Shown here one piece after another: positions 27,739-56,720 of a stretch of 64,000 bases of DNA. Positions within the stretch are counted from its first letter, which is position 1, and each line of letters begins with the position of its first letter. The notes beneath the pieces were generated by a model. The model ran no database searches, was not told the origin of the DNA, and saw only the letters and a program-made list of their open reading frames with translations. The DNA comes from a virus. The DNA lies in IMG/VR virus record IMGVR_UViG_3300036760_000327, positions 32,001 to 96,000 of that record. One strand, given 5' to 3'. The position numbers and the translations under genes were made by a program.

Positions 27739-28209
27739 TTATGCAAGTTGTTTACGTGGACGTGGGCCGATAAGTGGCCCATGTGCCCTATATTTTCGCA
27801 TATAACAAGTCTGACATAGTCCCATTCCAGCTATTCTTTTGTCTGGATGGCATGTTGCAGTCCAATGGATTCCTCGGGGAGCACGATGTGAAGTCATCTT
27901 TTTCCATTGTTCAATAATAAATCGAATCTTTTCCCTTCTTCTTTCACCCAAAAATTGATATAATGTCATCATCCATCCAATGGCTCGTGATCCATAAATC
28001 CCGCATTTCCATGTTGGTTTATGGTTTTTTCTTTTCCAATAGTAAGGCTTTTCTGGACTTTTTACTCCCAACAAAAAGGCTGCACGGATTACAATATCAC
28101 AATCTGTCATCTGCAAGCCTATGACGGGCCACTTTTTGTCTTTTAGACCGAACCAACCTTCACCCTCTAAAAGACCAGCTAACCATGCAATGTCCATTAT
28201 ACGTTTCAT
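27739..28209 (-). CDS. Free-standing LAGLIDADG homing endonuclease
   Basis: AWLAGLLEGEG; C-terminal CHPD...GLCQTCY. No flanking intron core seen. Confidence 0.8.
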   Translation of the reverse strand: MKRIMDIAWLAGLLEGEGWFGLKDKKWPVIGLQMTDCDIVIRAAFLLGVKSPEKPYYWKRKNHKPTWKCGIYGSRAIGWMMTLYQFLGERRREKIRFIIEQWKKMTSHRAPRGIHWTATCHPDKRIAGMGLCQTCYMRKYRAHGPLIGPRPRKQLA

Positions 28210-49294: not shown

Positions 49295-50008
49295 TTAATT
49301 ATTCATCTTGGTAATTCGTTTAAATTGTTCTACATTAAAATCTTTATAGGATTTCATTCGTACCATTACATCACTAGATTTCCTATCCTTTTCTCGTTTT
49401 ATCATTCGTTGAATCTCACTAGCATATACTCCAGCAAATTTTTGTGCTTTAGCATCATCCTCTAAGTATATAGCCCCACGTAAAACAGCCCCAAATATTA
49501 CAGCCTCAGTATGAAATGTGGATATATAATCATACTCGGCATCCAATGTCCAATCCGCTGGATTAGCATAATATTTTATAGTAAGGGTATAAGTAGCATC
49601 AGGAATAGGATATAAATCAAATTCCATACCTCGATCAATATAATAATCCGGTTCCCCTGTTTCAGATGAGCTCGTAGTAAATAATTTCTCTGGAGAACTA
49701 TCTGTAGATGCAATATCCGAATCACTACCATGAATTGAATCAAACTCATTTGGCAATATTCTAATTAATTTTTTAGTCCCAAGAAATATATTCAAATGAC
49801 CTAGATAGTCGGAAGGCAGTGCATATCTTGCAGTGCTGGCTGATACGGTAGCAGTAGATTCAGTGTATAAATAATTAAAATTATATTCTCCCGCCAGCGC
49901 TCTTCGTGCATCATTGATCCACTGCCCGATTTCGGTATCTATGTCTGTCCGATTGTCCAAATAGGATTTAACTCTGGTTTTTATAGTTCCAAAATCATTA
50001 AAACTCAC
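49295..50008 (-). CDS. Head-tail adaptor / tail tubular protein A-like
   Basis: WINDA, RYALPSDY, GEPDYY, LYPIPDATY. Confidence 0.7.
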   Translation of the reverse strand: MSFNDFGTIKTRVKSYLDNRTDIDTEIGQWINDARRALAGEYNFNYLYTESTATVSASTARYALPSDYLGHLNIFLGTKKLIRILPNEFDSIHGSDSDIASTDSSPEKLFTTSSSETGEPDYYIDRGMEFDLYPIPDATYTLTIKYYANPADWTLDAEYDYISTFHTEAVIFGAVLRGAIYLEDDAKAQKFAGVYASEIQRMIKREKDRKSSDVMVRMKSYKDFNVEQFKRITKMNN

Positions 50009-50066
50009 ATCAATTCTCCTTATAAAAAGGGCAGTTTATAGCCTCATGCCCAGGAGGATTGTCTGG

Positions 50067-50636
50067 TTAAATCTCCGATATATGTTTCTCCTTTTTATGA
50101 GCACCAAGTTCAATACCACTTCTAAATATTTCCCCGCAACCAGGAACAGGACATGTAAAAACCTTTTTAGGTTTTTCTGCCTTAACTTCCGGCGTGGCAA
50201 GTAACCGATCTAATTTTTCGGATAAAGAATTAAATTTCTCGCCAATCTTCTTGTCAATAATTTCTTCAATATTAACCACCGGATCTGGAACTCTTGCGGG
50301 AATATGAGATCTGGCCGCACTCAATAGAGGAGCAGATGCTGAATTAATTGTTGCTACAGCACCCGTAATCATCTCAATCGCAGGTTTAAAATATTCTGGA
50401 TGAGCAATCTTCCATTCTTTCTCGTCCTCTACTGCTGCAAACTTGATATTACAATAATCGTGCTTAAGCATTAATGCAATAGTATCAGGATCTTCAATCT
50501 CTATTCTTCCATTCATAAATTCGACTGTTTTTCCTGGAATTTGTACCCGCTGTCCATTAGCATCTAAAATATAAAAAGCGGGTTTCAATATTACTCGTAA
50601 TCGTTTTGCTTTTGCCATAAAAATCATCTTTGTCAC
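50067..50636 (-). CDS. Hypothetical protein with C-terminal C2H2 zinc finger
   Basis: FTCPVPGCGEIFRSGIELGAHKKEKH. Confidence 0.65.
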   Translation of the reverse strand: MTKMIFMAKAKRLRVILKPAFYILDANGQRVQIPGKTVEFMNGRIEIEDPDTIALMLKHDYCNIKFAAVEDEKEWKIAHPEYFKPAIEMITGAVATINSASAPLLSAARSHIPARVPDPVVNIEEIIDKKIGEKFNSLSEKLDRLLATPEVKAEKPKKVFTCPVPGCGEIFRSGIELGAHKKEKHISEI

Positions 50637-50645
50637 CGTTTCCTT

Positions 50646-51035
50646 TCACTCACCCATATCATCTCTTTTTAAGAGGTTTAGGCGCGTTTTTAATGGTTGT
50701 ACATAATCTTTAGGATCGTTGGTTGTGAATTTAAATTCTTGAAATTCGATACCAACTTCTGCCTGGTCCCTTTTGATAATCAAATGTGGAAGCATAATTT
50801 TTAATAGTCTATATGCTTGTTCATCTTTCCATTTTGCCCTAAATTGTCCCCCAGAAATTCTACCAATAATAGCATCAAACATTTGTAAGAATTTCATAAG
50901 TTCCGTATATTTAGAGGTGATCCATACATATAATGATGAATCAGATAAATTTTTCTTGTCTACAATTATCTTGATGCTCCCATGAATATCAAAAATTCCT
51001 GCCGTATAAGCAATTTCGGATCTATTGTACCTCAT
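50646..51035 (-). CDS. Free-standing LAGLIDADG endonuclease (degenerate motif)
   Basis: IAYTAGIFDIHGSI; LKIMLPHLIIKRDQA. Confidence 0.7.
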   Translation of the reverse strand: MRYNRSEIAYTAGIFDIHGSIKIIVDKKNLSDSSLYVWITSKYTELMKFLQMFDAIIGRISGGQFRAKWKDEQAYRLLKIMLPHLIIKRDQAEVGIEFQEFKFTTNDPKDYVQPLKTRLNLLKRDDMGE

Positions 51036-51059
51036 ATATCCTCCATTGAATTTTAAGTG

Positions 51060-51105
51060 CTGGAGGCTTCTGCTTTCTTTCGATTGCTTTTAATGAAGCC
51101 TCCAG
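51060..51105 (-). terminator. 11-bp inverted repeat between two endonuclease genes
   Basis: CTGGAGGCTTC (51060-70) pairs with GAAGCCTCCAG (51095-105). The loop is long and the U-tract weak, so it may be an RNA stabilising or processing hairpin instead. Confidence 0.35.
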
Positions 51106-51127
51106 GTTAAAGGTTAAAAACTAAATG

Positions 51128-51592
51128 CTAAAGACTCAGTTTTTTAAGTTCACTAAGTTTTACTCGCAAAGATTCTCGATAAACGATAGTATCTTCCGAT
51201 AGACCACGTGCACCATTAGATGTCCCCATTAAATCCTTATGTTTCTGTAAAGTTAAGCCAACCAAGGCTTCTTCTTTCTTTACAATTAAATAAGGTAAAA
51301 TCAATGTTAACATCTTTGCTGCCTTTCGATCCATCATAACTGCAACCCAGCATCGTTTCCAATGCGGTAATTGAGATTTCGCTGTACGCTCTCGAATATA
51401 AAATCCAAGTTCCTTAAGAAAAATCATCAATTTAGCAGATGTATTAGTAATTTGCAACTTCAATCGGTATCGCTTACTACGATAACCTTTATTAACTTTA
51501 GCTGCATTAATTCTAATACAACCCTCGCCATCTACAATCCCCGCAAGATATATTATCTTAGTGGTCGCTTCATCCATTGTAACCACCTCCAT
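51128..51592 (-). CDS. Free-standing LAGLIDADG homing endonuclease
   Basis: IYLAGIVDGEGCI; LILPYLIVKKEEA. The start may be the ATG near 51577 after GGAGG. Confidence 0.88.
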   Translation of the reverse strand: MEVVTMDEATTKIIYLAGIVDGEGCIRINAAKVNKGYRSKRYRLKLQITNTSAKLMIFLKELGFYIRERTAKSQLPHWKRCWVAVMMDRKAAKMLTLILPYLIVKKEEALVGLTLQKHKDLMGTSNGARGLSEDTIVYRESLRVKLSELKKLSL

Positions 51593-51619
51593 AATAAAAT
51601 ACTCAATGATTTCAATAAC

Positions 51620-54600
51620 TTAGCCGGTTACCCCGGTCAACAACCCGTGCTTTTCTTCGTTGTGGAATTCAAATCCGACTTCGCAGATGTATTGCAATTT
51701 GTTGCTGTCTTTTCAGACGAGTCAAACATTTCTGTTGACTTCTTAATGTTCCCATTAAGTTCGGACTGTGTCTTCTGATCATTAAGATCTGGGCTATGTA
51801 CAGTCTCTACAGGAATTATAAGATCATAAGTTCTATTAATTTTATCTACTTTTTTGATTAAAGAATTAAACGCTTTTGTATATTCTTTATCATGCACATA
51901 TCCATTGTCTTTAACTAATGTATTTCTATAATTTAAGAAACTACATATCAAATCAGCAATGGATTTTTTTAAGCCCACCATACATTTCCTAGTAATGTTT
52001 AAAATTCTATGAACATCATTAAACTTTGATATTACCAAACGGTAACATTGTCTAGTTCTTAGTCCATTTGGATTGGATACTGAATATATTTTAACTGGAT
52101 GCTCTAGTTCTTTCTCAAAAACTGATTTAGCCCAATTAATAATACCTATATCAGTATTACTAATCTCTATTCCAAGATGCGGCGAACTTAAACAATTCTC
52201 ACCAGTTCGTTTGTATGGTCTGCATACTCTAATTGAACCTTCTGATTCAATCAACATGCTTAATCTGGCGACGTCTTTAAGCTTCATAAAAAGCACCTCC
52301 TTGGCATGTCTTACGATCTGATTATTTCCCTCGGCGTTGTCCATTCTAGGACTTTCACCGATTAAATAGCCTTTTACAAGGACCAATTGTCGATCCTTCA
52401 CGAAATCGTCCCCTGGATGTTGAATATCAGCTTCCATGGTCACGTCTCTATTTTGTAAGAAACGATAGACCATTTCATCTAACTTCAATCCAAAGGCATA
52501 TCCACCATAAAGAGCGGTATTGCTAACAGAACCAGCATTCTCTAACATATAATCCTTAATCAGATTCAAGGTTCCATGAGGAGAAAGGTATTGCGCTATC
52601 GCAATTCCGTACGTTCTATCTTTGGGGTACATTTGAAGTTTTCCTTGTGCCCACTGGCTGATTACTGAAATAATCAGCGGGGATGCAAACAGATAAACTT
52701 CATCTCCACCAAAGCGCGTCACTGTCCTAATGAATGCCTCAAAATCTGCTTCAGTAAGGATTCCACCCACTGCTGTAACGTTAGTGTTGATAAAGAAATC
52801 AGCTCCACCAGATGTCCGTCTAGCATGGGTAATAGTAGAATCTAATCCCGAAGAAGTGTCTTCTAATCTTTCTCCGTACAAAGCCATTCGCTCGATGTCG
52901 CGCATAAGCTCGATGCCTTTAACTTTCCGCTCGTATGCACGGTAATTTCCGCCATCAATTGTGTTATTCTGAATCCTTAAGATTCAACTCTTTGCATCGC
53001 TGCAAAGTTCGGACTGTATCATCATCCATCCCTAATGGAATGGATGCCTTACGTGCGGTCTCTGAGGAAATATATTTAGGTTTGCGCTGTATTTCATACC
53101 GTTCAAACCAACGATTAATTTGTTCTTCAGAAATTGTTTTTCGTAAATTCGTATAGCCTTGTTGTTGCCTCCACTTAATATATTCTAGCAAAAACATAGC
53201 TAAGTATTTCTTATTTCGCAAATAGGGTAAAATAGCATTTAAAAACTTTTTACAGGTATTTAGCCCATTTGATTCGATCTTAAGAGCCATATTCCATTTT
53301 TTATTTCTAAGATTATTCTTTTGCAAACTAAAATGAAAGTTAATGCTTAAAGCATACAAAATATTACTAATTTCCTTAATCATTATTTCATCACAGTTCG
53401 TAACAGAAATACCTGTCGCTATCCATCCATATTTATGACCGGATGATTTATCCATATCTTTCTTTCTGAAAAACATGATGGAACCTTCTCCATCAATAAT
53501 ACCAGCTAACCAAGCTAAATCGGTATCTTTTATAATCATTTTATATCTCCTGCTGATTAACCCCACCTTTCTCTTTTACCAAACAGGTGGAAAGGATACT
53601 GGGTTTTTCCAGCATTTTATAAGGTTTTCATTATATCATTACTGATATACGCTGCATGCCTTATACAGCTCGGAATTTAACATAGTATTAGTCACCTCAA
53701 CGGATTTTCTAATAGTCTGTAAATAGTTATAGACTCTTGCGGCTTTGCGACTCTTTGTATAAAGAGCAGTAGAAGGAGATCCTTCTTCAAAGGCTGCACC
53801 GATGATCACCATCGTTGCTGCATTGGCTGCCGAGGCCGCGGCTGTAGCACCATAAGCTCTAATAGCTGTTACAGCGCACGCTGCTGTAGCTGTTACTAAA
53901 ATAACTTCGCCGGTTGAAGGAATTTTAACCAAGTCATACTTGTTAAAATAATTACCTTCGCCCGAGGCTACAGTTAATCCAGTAGCTGCTGACGTAGCAG
54001 AAGCTGCTAATGAAGACCAACTCGGATTAAGATCCAGATGTGTATTCTAGTCATTACTGACTAGCTCGGACTTTATCATCATCTTGCGATGTTTCACGTA
54101 AAGTCTCTGAGGAACGGAGTTTTGTCAAATCAAGTACGCTATTAGCCAATCGTGGAAGATGTAACATATTATATCTTTCTGCTTTTGCGAGTTTATGTTT
54201 CTCTATTAACTGATTAACATAATCTCGATCAATATAATCTTTATATCTCCCATCAGGTCCGCGGTTTTTTATTAATTGTTCGCGATAATTTGCGTATTCT
54301 AGCATGATATCTACTTCTGCTTGTTTGGTTTTTAAGTAAGGACGTATCATTTCTATTAATTTTCTACAACTCCCCGTACTATTACAAACTATTGTAATAG
54401 CATGATTTTGTTTACCGTGTAAATTATAAGCATTAATAGTATAATGAAATTTTAGTCCTAACTTATGCCACATTTCACTAACAGCTCTAATCATATATGG
54501 ATTAGTATTACAAACCGTAACTATCATAGAGATAAATGTTGCCATATCACTCTTATTTAATTGTTTTCTTGATTGGTAACACAACATTAAACATCCTTCT

Positions 54601-55326
54601 CCTTCTATGATAGCCGCTAGCCATGCTTTATCTTGCTCTGACAACATATAATTTCCTTTCCTGCTGATTGTCCCGCCAAAGGAATTGTCACATAATGTAT
54701 CCTTGACATAGGAGTTTCCAGCATATGGTGAAATTTTATGAGAACAATGTTGTTTATTCTCAGGCCATTCTACTGTAGTGTTGATGGCTACCCTTTTGTT
54801 AAGCTTTGAAACCAAAACGTACAAAGGCATAAATGTTAACTGCAATTTCGTATTACGATTATTTTTGCAGATCAGACTGTCGCATCATCTTTCGATGTCT
54901 CCTCGCTCAGTCGTTCACGGTGCTTTCGCTTCCGCCCTGTTGTCCATCTCTGGATGTCCAAGTCAATCAGAGGAGATTTATAGCGGCCCGCTTTGTCAAG
55001 CCGCCTCTGGCTGTAAAAGATAAATTTTATCCAAATTTGTTAATGATTTCAATAAGTTATGAAATCATGCTTGCTCATTTCTGTCAAGCTCTGCATATTC
55101 ATTTATATGCAGTTCAGACTGTCGCTTCTACTTTCGTAGTCTCTCCACTCAGTCGTTGCAACTGCACGGCTTTCGCCTGCTTGTTGAGGGTTGCCATCTC
55201 AGGTGTTCCCCATTAATCAGGAGAGATTTTATATGACCAAGTAGTTTACCAAGCCATATCCACCACACGTAGATTTGACAATATGTTTTGTGAGCCTGTT
55301 CCGCCCGTTACCATTGTTGCTGCCAT
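51620..55326 (-). CDS. Major capsid protein (SU10 MCP/DUF5309-like), 6 exons, 395 aa after splicing
   Basis: Exons 55326-55252, 55031-54999, 54827-54756, 54034-53665, 52955-52393 and 51694-51620 total 1188 nt and join without stops: MAATMV...VVDMA|DKIYLLQPEAA|PLYVLV...VEWPEN|DLNP...NYLQTIRKSVEVTNT...L Y|GGNYRAYE...ELMRDIERMALYG...DDFVKD|QYICEVGFEFHNEEKHGLLTGVTG*. Follows the scaffold gene; GGAGGTG RBS. Confidence 0.9.
51637..52287 (-). CDS. Intron 5-encoded LAGLIDADG endonuclease
   Basis: AGGAGG RBS, ARLSMLIESEGSI, IEISNTD. The frame runs 58 nt into exon 6. Confidence 0.8.
   Translation of the reverse strand: MKLKDVARLSMLIESEGSIRVCRPYKRTGENCLSSPHLGIEISNTDIGIINWAKSVFEKELEHPVKIYSVSNPNGLRTRQCYRLVISKFNDVHRILNITRKCMVGLKKSIADLICSFLNYRNTLVKDNGYVHDKEYTKAFNSLIKKVDKINRTYDLIIPVETVHSPDLNDQKTQSELNGNIKKSTEMFDSSEKTATNCNTSAKSDLNSTTKKSTGC
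51695..52392 (-). mobile_element. Group I intron 5 of the capsid gene (698 nt)
   Basis: P1 aaggaU/Guccuu; core GUAGAGACUG...ACACAGUCCG; terminal G. Confidence 0.88.
52956..53664 (-). mobile_element. Group I intron 4 of the capsid gene (709 nt, phase 1)
   Basis: P1 gcugU/Gcagc; AAUGCUGGAA...AAUCAGCAGG (P/Q); UCAGAGACCG...AUACAGUCCG (R/S); terminal G. Splicing restores the Tyr codon T|AT. Confidence 0.9.
52964..53539 (-). CDS. Intron 4-encoded LAGLIDADG endonuclease
   Basis: LAWLAGIIDGEGSI; AILPYLRNK. Confidence 0.9.
   Translation of the reverse strand: MIIKDTDLAWLAGIIDGEGSIMFFRKKDMDKSSGHKYGWIATGISVTNCDEIMIKEISNILYALSINFHFSLQKNNLRNKKWNMALKIESNGLNTCKKFLNAILPYLRNKKYLAMFLLEYIKWRQQQGYTNLRKTISEEQINRWFERYEIQRKPKYISSETARKASIPLGMDDDTVRTLQRCKELNLKDSE
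54035..54755 (-). mobile_element. Group I intron 3 of the capsid gene (721 nt)
   Basis: P1 gagaaU/Guucuc; AUGCUGGAAA...AAUCAGCAGG; UCAGAGACUU...AUAAAGUCCG; terminal G. Confidence 0.9.
54054..54647 (-). CDS. Intron 3-encoded LAGLIDADG endonuclease
   Basis: AWLAAIIEGEGCL; IRPYLKTK. In frame with exon 3. Confidence 0.88.
   Translation of the reverse strand: MLSEQDKAWLAAIIEGEGCLMLCYQSRKQLNKSDMATFISMIVTVCNTNPYMIRAVSEMWHKLGLKFHYTINAYNLHGKQNHAITIVCNSTGSCRKLIEMIRPYLKTKQAEVDIMLEYANYREQLIKNRGPDGRYKDYIDRDYVNQLIEKHKLAKAERYNMLHLPRLANSVLDLTKLRSSETLRETSQDDDKVRASQ
54828..54998 (-). ncRNA. Group I intron 2 of the capsid gene (171 nt, ORF-less)
   Basis: P1 gcggcU/Ggccgc; P3 UCUCCUC/GAGGAGA; P7 GACUG/CAGUC; P8 CAUC-GAAA-GAUG; terminal G. 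Confidence 0.85.
55032..55251 (-). ncRNA. Group I intron 1 of the capsid gene (220 nt, ORF-less)
   Basis: P1 auauggcU/Ggucauau; P3 UCUCUCC/GGAGAGA; P7 GACUG/CAGUC; P8 CUAC-GAAA-GUAG; terminal G. Confidence 0.87.
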
Positions 55327-55371
55327 ATAATTTTTCACCTCCTTCTGTCATAGAATAAAATTACAACTGGA

Positions 55372-56388
55372 CTATTTCTTCGATGCTAAATCAAGTCCAT
55401 GCAAGAAATTAGCCGAGACTGGTCCAGCTTTTAACATGTCATCAAACATCTTTTCTTCCTCTGTCATAGGCACTGTGGCATCACGAGGAGCCATCCTATT
55501 TGTAGGAGTAATAGGCATTGTCTGATTAGATGTTAATGGAACCGAGGCATTCCTTCGTTTACGAATCTGTTCTTTCAATCTTTGTTCAAGTTTTGAAAGA
55601 ATTTCTTCTTCTGATAATCTTGGCGCAGCCTGTACAGTAGGAGGTACAGAAGTTATAGGAATATTTAATTCCCGTTTCATTGCTTCTAAAGCAGCAGTTT
55701 TACGTCTTTTGGCTTCATCATACACACGAGGAAGCGCATTAGGATTATCATTAACTGATGGATTTTCAGCCACAATTTGACGCATAAGAGGTCTTAATTC
55801 ATCAAAATCTGTGTGTTCAGATCTGAATCTATTTACAAAATCTCTTGTGTTTCTAATATTATCGTATTCTGAAAAAGCTGCTGGCAAAGCAGTCTGGAGC
55901 ACCGCACGAACAGTCTTTACGACATTTTCTTTTGGTGACTGAATGATTGCCTGATCATCAATTTCATCCAGAGGATCTGGTTGTGACCTATTTAGCTCTG
56001 TTCCAGTTGCCTGAGATTTCTTTAAAAGTTCCTGAACAATCAGTGATAATTGTGCAATTTGATTGTTGGTTTCTTTTAAAGAATTTTCTAAGTCATTAGA
56101 CTTATCAGAAGTTGGCACTTCTGGCCGTGGGGGCTCAGGCTGGGCTACCACGTGCGTTGGTACAACCACGTCTGCTGTTGGTACCGTTGGTTCGGTAACA
56201 GGAGGCGTTGGCGTCACCGGCTCTACAGTCGGGGTGGCAGTTGCTGGAGTTGGACTTGGGGTTGGTTCTTCAACCTTCTTATCCTCAAAAAGCAATTGCA
56301 AATCTGCATCGGAAATTCCGAAGTTACTTGATAGTGTGTCATCCACAATCTGATCAAGTGTTTTTTTAGGTCTACTTTCTTCTGCCAT
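55372..56388 (-). CDS. Capsid scaffolding protein
   Basis: Acidic, Pro/Thr-rich N-terminus plus helical body, immediately upstream of the capsid gene. Confidence 0.7.
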   Translation of the reverse strand: MAEESRPKKTLDQIVDDTLSSNFGISDADLQLLFEDKKVEEPTPSPTPATATPTVEPVTPTPPVTEPTVPTADVVVPTHVVAQPEPPRPEVPTSDKSNDLENSLKETNNQIAQLSLIVQELLKKSQATGTELNRSQPDPLDEIDDQAIIQSPKENVVKTVRAVLQTALPAAFSEYDNIRNTRDFVNRFRSEHTDFDELRPLMRQIVAENPSVNDNPNALPRVYDEAKRRKTAALEAMKRELNIPITSVPPTVQAAPRLSEEEILSKLEQRLKEQIRKRRNASVPLTSNQTMPITPTNRMAPRDATVPMTEEEKMFDDMLKAGPVSANFLHGLDLASKK

Positions 56389-56414
56389 AATAATTTCTCC
56401 TTCTTTTTTGTTTG

Positions 56415-56720
56415 CTATTTCTTTAGCATTTTAAAAGCCTTTTCACCTTCCTCAATCTTTTTATTAACAAAATTGAGCAAGTCGAAAATTTCCCGTTGTG
56501 CTGCTCTAATATCAGTTAATTCTTCAGCCTTGGCCATTAAATATCTTTCTTGAGATATTCTCCGATTAATGAAATTTTCCATCAAATGTTTCCATCCTGA
56601 AGAACTTACCAAAGCTAAGTACATCCCTCCATCGTCGCAGCTCTTCCTCAGTTTTGATTCCTGTTCTGTTGTTAACTCAACAGATTTAGTATCATTCATT
56701 AATAAATCTTTACGATCCAC
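56415..56720 (-). CDS. Conserved head-module hypothetical protein
   Basis: LVSSSGWKHL motif; lies between portal and scaffold; AAGGAGG RBS. Confidence 0.55.
   Translation of the reverse strand: MDRKDLLMNDTKSVELTTEQESKLRKSCDDGGMYLALVSSSGWKHLMENFINRRISQERYLMAKAEELTDIRAAQREIFDLLNFVNKKIEEGEKAFKMLKK

Follow-up and report, generated by a model that had tools for sequence, protein, structure and literature searches.

Within the genome of an environmental phage (IMG/VR virus record IMGVR_UViG_3300036760_000327; 106,486 bp, G+C content 34%), the sole SU10/HK97-type major capsid gene is, with a probability that we put at roughly 0.88, interrupted by five group I introns that fall into two structural classes. 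The window analysed here is the stretch of 64,000 nucleotides (nt) formed by bases 32001-96000 of that record; positions are those of the window unless stated otherwise, and every gene, exon, intron and intron element of the window located below lies on the minus strand. The capsid locus extends from 55326 to 51620. A sequence-only reading of this locus had proposed that no intact capsid open reading frame (ORF) follows the scaffold-like gene, and that six segments of 75, 33, 72, 370, 563 and 75 nt join into a stop-free protein of 395 amino acids (aa) of the SU10 capsid type. Both proposals were upheld, as inspection of the ORFs, with matches to family PF17236 on two separate ORFs, showed the gene to be split, and independently rederived exon coordinates yield 1188 nt that encode 395 aa and a stop, with zero internal stops when read from the minus strand in a script-based check. 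The introns (220, 171, 721, 709 and 698 nt) make up 2519 of the 3707 nt of the locus (68%), figures that were the same when recomputed.

The first exon (55252..55326, 75 nt, aa 1-25) is preceded by an AAGGAGG ribosome-binding site and aligns with the N-termini of intact homologues. It is followed by a micro-exon of 33 nt (exon 2, 54999..55031, aa 26-36) encoding DKIYLLQPEAA, 11 residues that are near-invariant among homologues, and then by exon 3 (54756..54827, 72 nt, aa 37-60), exon 4 (53665..54034, 370 nt, aa 61 to the first base of codon 184), exon 5 (52393..52955, 563 nt, codons 184-371) and exon 6 (51620..51694, 75 nt including the stop, aa 372-395). The product is assigned to the SU10-type capsid proteins by a profile score over the gathering cut-off together with full-length homology. 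The exon-5 ORF matches PF17236 (SU10_MCP) at 48.1 bits (cut-off 24.1) and the exon-4 ORF does so weakly, the score in the genome search being 62.3 bits; an intact homologue (P0004, 91-94% identical), used as a stand-in for the spliced protein in the profile search, matches phrog_1328, ‘major head protein’, with an E value of 3e-30.

Comparison with uninterrupted homologues places the junctions precisely. The exon-5 search recovered 103 homologous capsid proteins, mostly of 384-405 aa, and 73 of these are full-length single ORFs that align end to end with the spliced product in one segment. In a MAFFT alignment of the spliced product with 15 intact homologues (39-94% identity) the five junctions are all free of gaps, and they lie in the most conserved blocks of the protein (VDMA|DKIYLL, PEAA|PLYVL, WPEN|DLNPSW, SELY|GG and FVKD|QYICE). 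The sequence-only reading had stated that it should be abandoned if the spliced product failed to align contiguously with intron-less homologues, or if an intact capsid gene lay elsewhere in the genome; the alignment is contiguous throughout, and neither the PF17236 search nor tblastn of the spliced protein detected a second capsid gene in the 106,486-bp genome. Its suggestion that gene callers would miss such a gene is borne out by the protein collection, which from this genome holds only a 416-aa fragment containing exon 5 (P0005).

The same comparison bears on the view that the locus is a decaying capsid pseudogene in a defective or mis-assembled genome, from which the inserts are never removed. 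The sequence does come from a metagenome assembly, and five insertions in one essential gene resemble decay. However, relative to the closest relative (contig L003; 92-94% aa and about 78% nucleotide identity) the exons show a dN of 0.068, a dS of 2.6, which is saturated, and a dN/dS of 0.027, with every exon in register and zero frameshifts or stops. The capsid gene thus evolves under strong purifying selection in its spliced form. Moreover, the junctions are nucleotide-exact with respect to the homologues, no second capsid gene was found, the genome is rated complete with direct terminal repeats at its ends, and L003 carries an independent intron at the intron-2 site. Decay of the gene is thus very improbable.

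The last base is U in each 5' exon and G in each intron (five of five). The exon-terminal U forms a pair with the G at the terminus of P1, a helix of 5-8 base pairs (bp) between the exon end and a guide sequence that lies 8-20 nt inside the intron. Counting the terminal U·G pair, P1 measures 8, 7, 7, 5 and 6 bp in introns 1 to 5, and such lengths were reached by 0.4%, 2.2%, 0.7%, 11% and 3.7% of shuffles, respectively (first 35 intron bases, 20,000 trials). The hallmarks of group I introns were found, namely a P1 with a U·G pair, a terminal G with exact exon joins, and a P3-P8/P7 core with a P4-P6 domain; the junction rules noted earlier (U·G in P1, terminal G and P7 core elements) thus held for all five introns, the P7 of intron 4 containing mismatches. 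In-frame stops follow the 5' splice site at codon 2 of intron 1, codon 1 of intron 2 and codon 9 of intron 4, and stops soon after the 5' splice site are common in bacterial group I introns (PMC3984707).

These junctions also speak to the idea that the inserts are inteins or group II introns, or are removed by translational bypassing or excision at the DNA level. At their 5' junctions introns 3 and 5 continue the reading frame of the preceding exon, and a weak match to the group II model RF01998 (52950-53011, E 0.91) was noted. Nevertheless, the stops 1-9 codons past the 5' junctions of introns 1, 2 and 4, in combination with the out-of-frame 3' sides of introns 3 and 5, make protein splicing impossible, and inteins were ruled out on these grounds. 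Neither a reverse transcriptase nor a domain V was found, inserts of 171-721 nt are far over known lengths of ribosomal bypassing, and group I cores account for every boundary, so that removal by any of these other routes has a negligible probability.

The group I identity of the putative introns is supported by two lines of evidence, a covarying core in introns 1 and 2, and significant though sub-threshold matches to the Rfam model Intron_gpI (RF00028) along with the P, Q, R and S elements in introns 3 to 5. The first two introns are compact and lack an ORF. Intron 1 (55032..55251, 220 nt, terminal G at 55032) has a P1 of AUGGCU/GGUCAU (55257-55252 / 55238-55233), P3 at 55226-55220 / 55146-55140, P7 (GACUG/CAGUC) at 55154-55150 / 55121-55117, P8 at 55139-55128, P9 at 55112-55091, and two more 3' hairpins. 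Intron 2 (54828..54998, 171 nt) has a P1 of GCGGCU/GGCCGC, a 6-bp P10 candidate formed by ACAAAG (54996-54991) with CUUUGU of exon 3, P3 at 54976-54970 / 54904-54898, P4, P5 at 54954-54943, P6 at 54935-54917, P7 at 54912-54908 / 54879-54875, P8 at 54897-54886 and P9 at 54870-54840. The core common to both consists of P3, P4, P5, P6 with a GAAA loop, P7 GACUG/CAGUC, P8 with a GAAA loop, and P9.

A pattern derived from the P8-S region of introns 1 and 2 retrieved 33 viral contigs (L020-L052), defining a compact, group I-like family whose members are about 140-200 nt long and share the invariant motifs CUGAUUG, AACGACUGAG and GCGACAGUCUGA; Rfam found nothing on 13 related loci. One of these contigs, L048, contains two copies 850 nt apart. 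In an alignment of 23 sequences (A1; 21 from other viral contigs plus introns 1 and 2), 96.6% of the pairs are standard over the 28 pairs of the P3-P8/P7 pseudoknot, with compensatory changes in 17 of the 28; none of 500 shuffles reached the observed score, and slid registers pair at 39-53%. With a covariance model (R1) constructed from the 21 foreign sequences alone, the window being excluded, intron 2 scores 134.5 bits (E 2.9e-39) and intron 1 scores 95.7 bits (E 2.3e-27). Elsewhere in the window the model picks up only the 3' cores of introns 5, 3 and 4, as weak matches (E 0.002-0.02), a chain that ties the compact class to the class recognised by Rfam. Scans with R/S patterns located only the five places in the capsid gene, and no further intron cores were found in the genome. 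One other R1 match, at 10435-10508 of contig L085 (E 0.004, near the genome end), was rejected as noise, as it includes an R-like GACUAUAC but has no S element or P8.

Introns 3, 4 and 5 carry ORFs and the classical elements P (UGCUGGAAA), Q (AAUCAGCAGG), R (UCAGAGACnnnAC) and S (GAUAnAGUCCGA), with a P8 hairpin between R and S and a P9 hairpin 3' of S. In intron 3 (54035..54755, 721 nt) P1 is GAGAAU/GUUCUC and P3 is UUUCAC/GUGAAA (54733-54728 / 54097-54092), with P at 54723-54715, Q at 54669-54660, R at 54110-54098, P8 at 54091-54080, S at 54077-54066 and P9 at 54065-54047. Intron 4 (52956..53664, 709 nt) has a P1 of GCUGU/GCAGC, a P2 hairpin at 53649-53632 and a P3 of CCUUAU/GUAAGG, its P, Q and R elements occupying 53614-53606, 53558-53549 and 53065-53053, followed by P8 (53046-53023), S (53020-53009) and P9 (53007-52990). 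For intron 5 (51695..52392, 698 nt) the corresponding features are P1 AAGGAU/GUCCUU with an adjacent P10 candidate (AUUG/CAAU), P3 GGCUAU/AUAGCC, R at 51810-51798, P8 at 51791-51775, S at 51772-51761 and P9 at 51759-51742.

The check with an Infernal group I model that had been proposed for this locus succeeded in part. RF00028 matches the 3' core of intron 4 at 39.4 bits (E 6e-10 genome-wide), that of intron 3 at 27.6 bits (E 1.9e-5 in a 231-nt search) and that of intron 5 at 21.2 bits (E 1.7e-4 genome-wide), the confident alignment covering exactly R, P3', P8, S and P9; no match attained the cut-off and introns 1 and 2 were unmatched. That the scores of introns 3 to 5 remain under the cut-off is expected, the two halves of each core being set apart by an ORF of about 550 nt. 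Rfam cmscan listed no Intron_gpI either for the whole window at the gathering score or for 50000-56500 at an E value of 10, an absence that is probably a filter effect of the long ORF inserts, given the matches obtained in the genome search and in narrow windows.

Variation among related introns provides independent information on the ORF-bearing class. The three introns of the window were compared with five homologous introns, at four sites, from the capsid genes of relatives, reading P3 in a fixed register (four bases upstream of P, and five bases after the GAC of R). In seven of the eight introns P3 is a perfect 6-bp helix in this register, and six distinct helices occur (UUUCAC, CCUUAU, GGCUAU, CUCUCU, CAACAC and UCUAAC); likewise, the guide sequence of each relative's intron is complementary to its own exon. 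As sequences vary while pairing is kept, P1 and P3 covary in this class. This rests on inspection in fixed register, the MAFFT alignment of the 3' cores (A2) being too gappy in P8 and P9 for a formal count of pairs.

The ORFs of introns 3 to 5 encode LAGLIDADG-type proteins. That of intron 3 (54054..54647, 197 aa, motif IIEGEG; phrog_5046, E 2.5e-8) shares the reading frame of exon 3 and extends over R, P3', P8 and S; that of intron 4 (52964..53539, 191 aa, motif LAGIIDGEGS) matches PF00961 at 19.6 bits (cut-off 23.1) and phrog_5046, as well as, weakly, enzymes of the I-MsoI/I-SmaMI type among PDB sequences; and the LAGLIDADG-like ORF of intron 5 (51637..52287, 216 aa, motif LIESEGS) is in frame with exon 5, has its own AAGGAGG site, and has no Pfam or PHROG match. 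All three are intact, each with a ribosome-binding site, a single LAGLIDADG-type helix and a catalytic Glu, and all are single-motif, I-CreI-like ORFs inserted between P6 and P7 that overlap the 3' core. The intron ORFs would be predicted to specify active endonucleases, and their targets are likewise predicted. They are mutually only about 29% identical, and introns 3 to 5 are therefore not recent copies of each other.

Free-standing genes of the same family flank the capsid gene; free-standing LAGLIDADG genes are unusual in phages. Directly downstream lies an endonuclease gene of 154 aa (51128..51592, motif LAGIVDGEG), present only in some relatives (L003, L068 and L081), which gives clearer sequence matches to I-CreI and I-CvuI. 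Across the LAGLIDADG ORFs, PF00961 scores are 19.6-22.6 bits, under the 23.1 cut-off, and matches to PDB sequences of I-CreI, I-MsoI and I-CvuI have E values of 1e-3 to 1e-2. Next follows a gene of 129 aa (50646..51035) that lacks the catalytic acidic residue. Its product, the sole LAGLIDADG protein for which a fold was predicted, gave an AlphaFold predicted local distance difference test (pLDDT) value of 90.9 and a template modelling (TM) score of 0.79 to I-CreI. The gene is next to the capsid gene in at least eight relatives, including some with intron-less capsid genes, and the catalytic acidic position (D20 of I-CreI) is H, I, V, A, G or L in nine of nine orthologues; the modelled protein looks like a domesticated, nuclease-dead homing-endonuclease fold. 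A third free-standing ORF (27739-28209, 156 aa, LAGLLEGEG) is situated among the tail genes with no intron core nearby. Endonucleases of phage introns belong mostly to the GIY-YIG, HNH, PD-(D/E)xK and EDxHD families rather than to the LAGLIDADG family (PMC3984707).

A number of observations weigh against five functional group I introns in this gene. None of the five reaches the RF00028 gathering score of 50 bits, and introns 1 and 2 are not matched by this model even at an E value of 10 (446-nt search). The extended P7 of intron 4 contains two C·A mismatches in its outer part, in intron 1 the P5 is weak (2 bp) and the P4-P6 domain aligns poorly, and only introns 2 and 5 have convincing P10 pairings, of 6 bp and 4 bp respectively. 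Furthermore, splicing is predicted from the DNA sequence, and the exact metagenome-assembled sequence is presumed to be viable. The irregularities of P7 in intron 4 and of P5 in intron 1 make these two the candidates for a different arrangement, in which at least one of the group I introns depends on a neighbouring ribozyme or on a helper protein, which might be a LAGLIDADG maturase or an RNA chaperone of the host. LAGLIDADG maturases and assistance by StpA and S12 are documented for bacterial group I introns (PMC3984707), and the conserved, probably nuclease-dead 129-aa protein is encoded just downstream. This gene is, however, equally kept in relatives with an intron-less capsid gene and is therefore not there for these introns; all five cores are complete, and the best Rfam score is that of intron 4. 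Dependence on a helper is a possible but rather unlikely refinement, and in the main reading each ribozyme would be self-sufficient.

Under the interpretation favoured here, the late pre-mRNA would be a single transcript unit of about 3.7 kb, in which each intron would fold, bind guanosine in P7 and cleave after the U of the P1 U·G pair, with exon ligation after the intron-terminal G generating the 1188-nt mRNA for the 395-aa capsid protein. By analogy with characterised group I introns, five guanosine-initiated splicing events would take place in vivo.

The history of these introns can be viewed against related capsid loci, about 40 in number, on viral and metagenome contigs; for several truncated homologues (P0052, P0080 and P0091-93) the DNA was only partly recovered via the metagenome scan. 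Most of these loci have no intron, a few have exactly one, and two or more introns were found in none of them. The single introns are inserted after codon 31 (L012, L015, L066, L071 and L075), after codon 36 (L003), after codon 300 (L081) and at about codon 316 (L072). At the codon-36 site the compact 171-nt intron 2 (54828-54998) of this genome corresponds to a 750-nt ORF-bearing intron in L003 (4807-5556), at the identical nucleotide position; a single site is thus occupied by two different introns, one compact and one classical. Across this lineage introns have recurrently inserted in the capsid gene, at no fewer than eight sites, and the present genome marks the extreme. The claim that five introns are extreme is sustained by these loci, with at most one intron each, and by the literature found, in which capsid genes have a single intron and no phage gene has more than three. 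A distant capsid relative (43% identity) is located at the end of a 613,528-bp contig (L077), and in UniRef its protein (P0094) is listed as a phage capsid from an Eiseniibacteriota bacterium; L077 is possibly a prophage, and as such hints at which hosts the capsid family at large may have.

The five introns may have been acquired separately, and not by recent duplication, and would be kept and spread by homing, for which the intron-borne or the adjacent free-standing endonucleases are candidates. Their positions at highly conserved codons could be attributed to this origin, as the endonucleases would recognise conserved capsid DNA. An advantage gained through interference with co-infecting relatives is plausible by analogy, interference competition having been shown for an intron endonuclease of phage PhiPA3 (PMC11620839). 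A more far-reaching proposal makes the capsid gene of this phage lineage contested ground among homing endonucleases. Intron-less capsid alleles carried by co-infecting relatives would be cleaved by the three enzymes encoded in introns and by the free-standing LAGLIDADG enzymes beside the gene, the ORF-less introns 1 and 2 would shield their own gene from such cuts, the capsid supply would be gated by five ribozymes, and the 171-nt class would represent an undescribed minimal subclass of group I ribozymes. As a whole this proposal is doubtful.

Turning to the surroundings, the locus is part of a minus-strand head-gene block in which genes of 658 aa and 101 aa and the 338-aa scaffold-like gene (55372-56388, without a family match) lie 5' of the capsid locus, and the two LAGLIDADG-type genes, a 189-aa gene and then an SU10-type adaptor gene (PF24175, E 2e-27) lie 3' of it, an order that is kept across related viral contigs. 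Outside the window, a 44-aa ORF with a good ribosome-binding site (genome 103789-103920, minus strand; about 7889-8020 in L085) reproduces about 18 of the 25 residues of capsid exon 1 and runs on as WKIVSKKRKKKSKRTNKKNV. The residues that follow DMA are W-K-I, the W being the first intron codon and K-I belonging to exon 2; past DMA its DNA has 7/10 versus 6/10 base matches, so that a spliced or unspliced origin is ambiguous. Searches of GenBank phages gave zero tblastn matches for exon 5 and, for intron 2, one match to an unannotated metagenomic phage, and neither a cultured relative nor an annotated homologous intron was found by these searches.

Among known systems, the mycobacteriophage LittleE has a group I intron with a LAGLIDADG (I-CreI-like) ORF in its capsid gene, which was shown to be spliced during late expression (Pope et al. 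2013, PMC3706429). The two cases share a LAGLIDADG-bearing group I intron in a phage major capsid gene, with U at the exon end and G at the intron end; but LittleE has one intron, with the endonuclease gene on the opposite strand, whereas here there are five introns of two classes, sense-strand endonuclease genes that overlap the core, a 33-nt exon, and splicing that is predicted. A group I intron in a capsid-subunit gene is likewise cited in PMC3706429 for the lactococcal phage Tuc2009, again a single one by that citation. The orf142 gene of Staphylococcus phage Twort carries three group I introns (Landthaler and Shub 1999, PMC22036), and the title of that report also mentions exon skipping by ribozymes, which by analogy is a risk for the 33-nt exon of the present gene. 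The orf142 gene is a non-capsid gene with three introns that lack LAGLIDADG genes, and splicing of Twort introns is reported in that paper, in contrast to the five introns, of predicted splicing, described here.

Collaborative or trans homing offers a further parallel, as described for the psbA intron of cyanophage S-PM2 with the adjacent free-standing F-CphI, and for mobE/I-TevIII of T4 (PMC6083498, PMC2790892). The ORF-less introns 1 and 2 similarly reside in a gene flanked by free-standing homing-endonuclease genes (51128-51592 and 50646-51035), yet these putative endonucleases are of the LAGLIDADG family, and one of them has no catalytic residue and also stands beside intron-less capsid genes.

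Outside the phages, a further comparison is organellar. Fungal mitochondrial genes such as cox1 are crowded with LAGLIDADG-bearing group I introns, within an organelle that has no tight coupling of transcription and translation, whereas the gene considered here belongs to a bacterial virus whose late mRNA would need five splicing reactions. An example of an intron-rich mitogenome has been reported (PMC6279837).

In targeted literature searches no report was found of more than one intron in a phage capsid gene, and the present gene is the most intron-dense phage gene found described in the literature searched, although each of its introns is a known kind of mobile element. The group I mechanism is textbook knowledge and single capsid introns have already been published; five introns in one capsid gene, with a 33-nt exon between compact ribozymes, are thus exceptional but mechanistically ordinary. 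Standard gene callers miss this capsid gene, and similar phages would be recorded as having no major capsid protein. Bacterial translation normally follows close behind transcription, and the requirement for five ribozyme reactions on what is presumably the most abundant late mRNA would test the intron load that an essential gene can bear. The locus also offers a natural case for the study of splice order, of exon skipping around the 33-nt exon, and of competition among homing endonucleases, and the compact class of 171-220 nt, invisible to Rfam and present on at least 33 viral contigs, provides a set of small candidate ribozymes.

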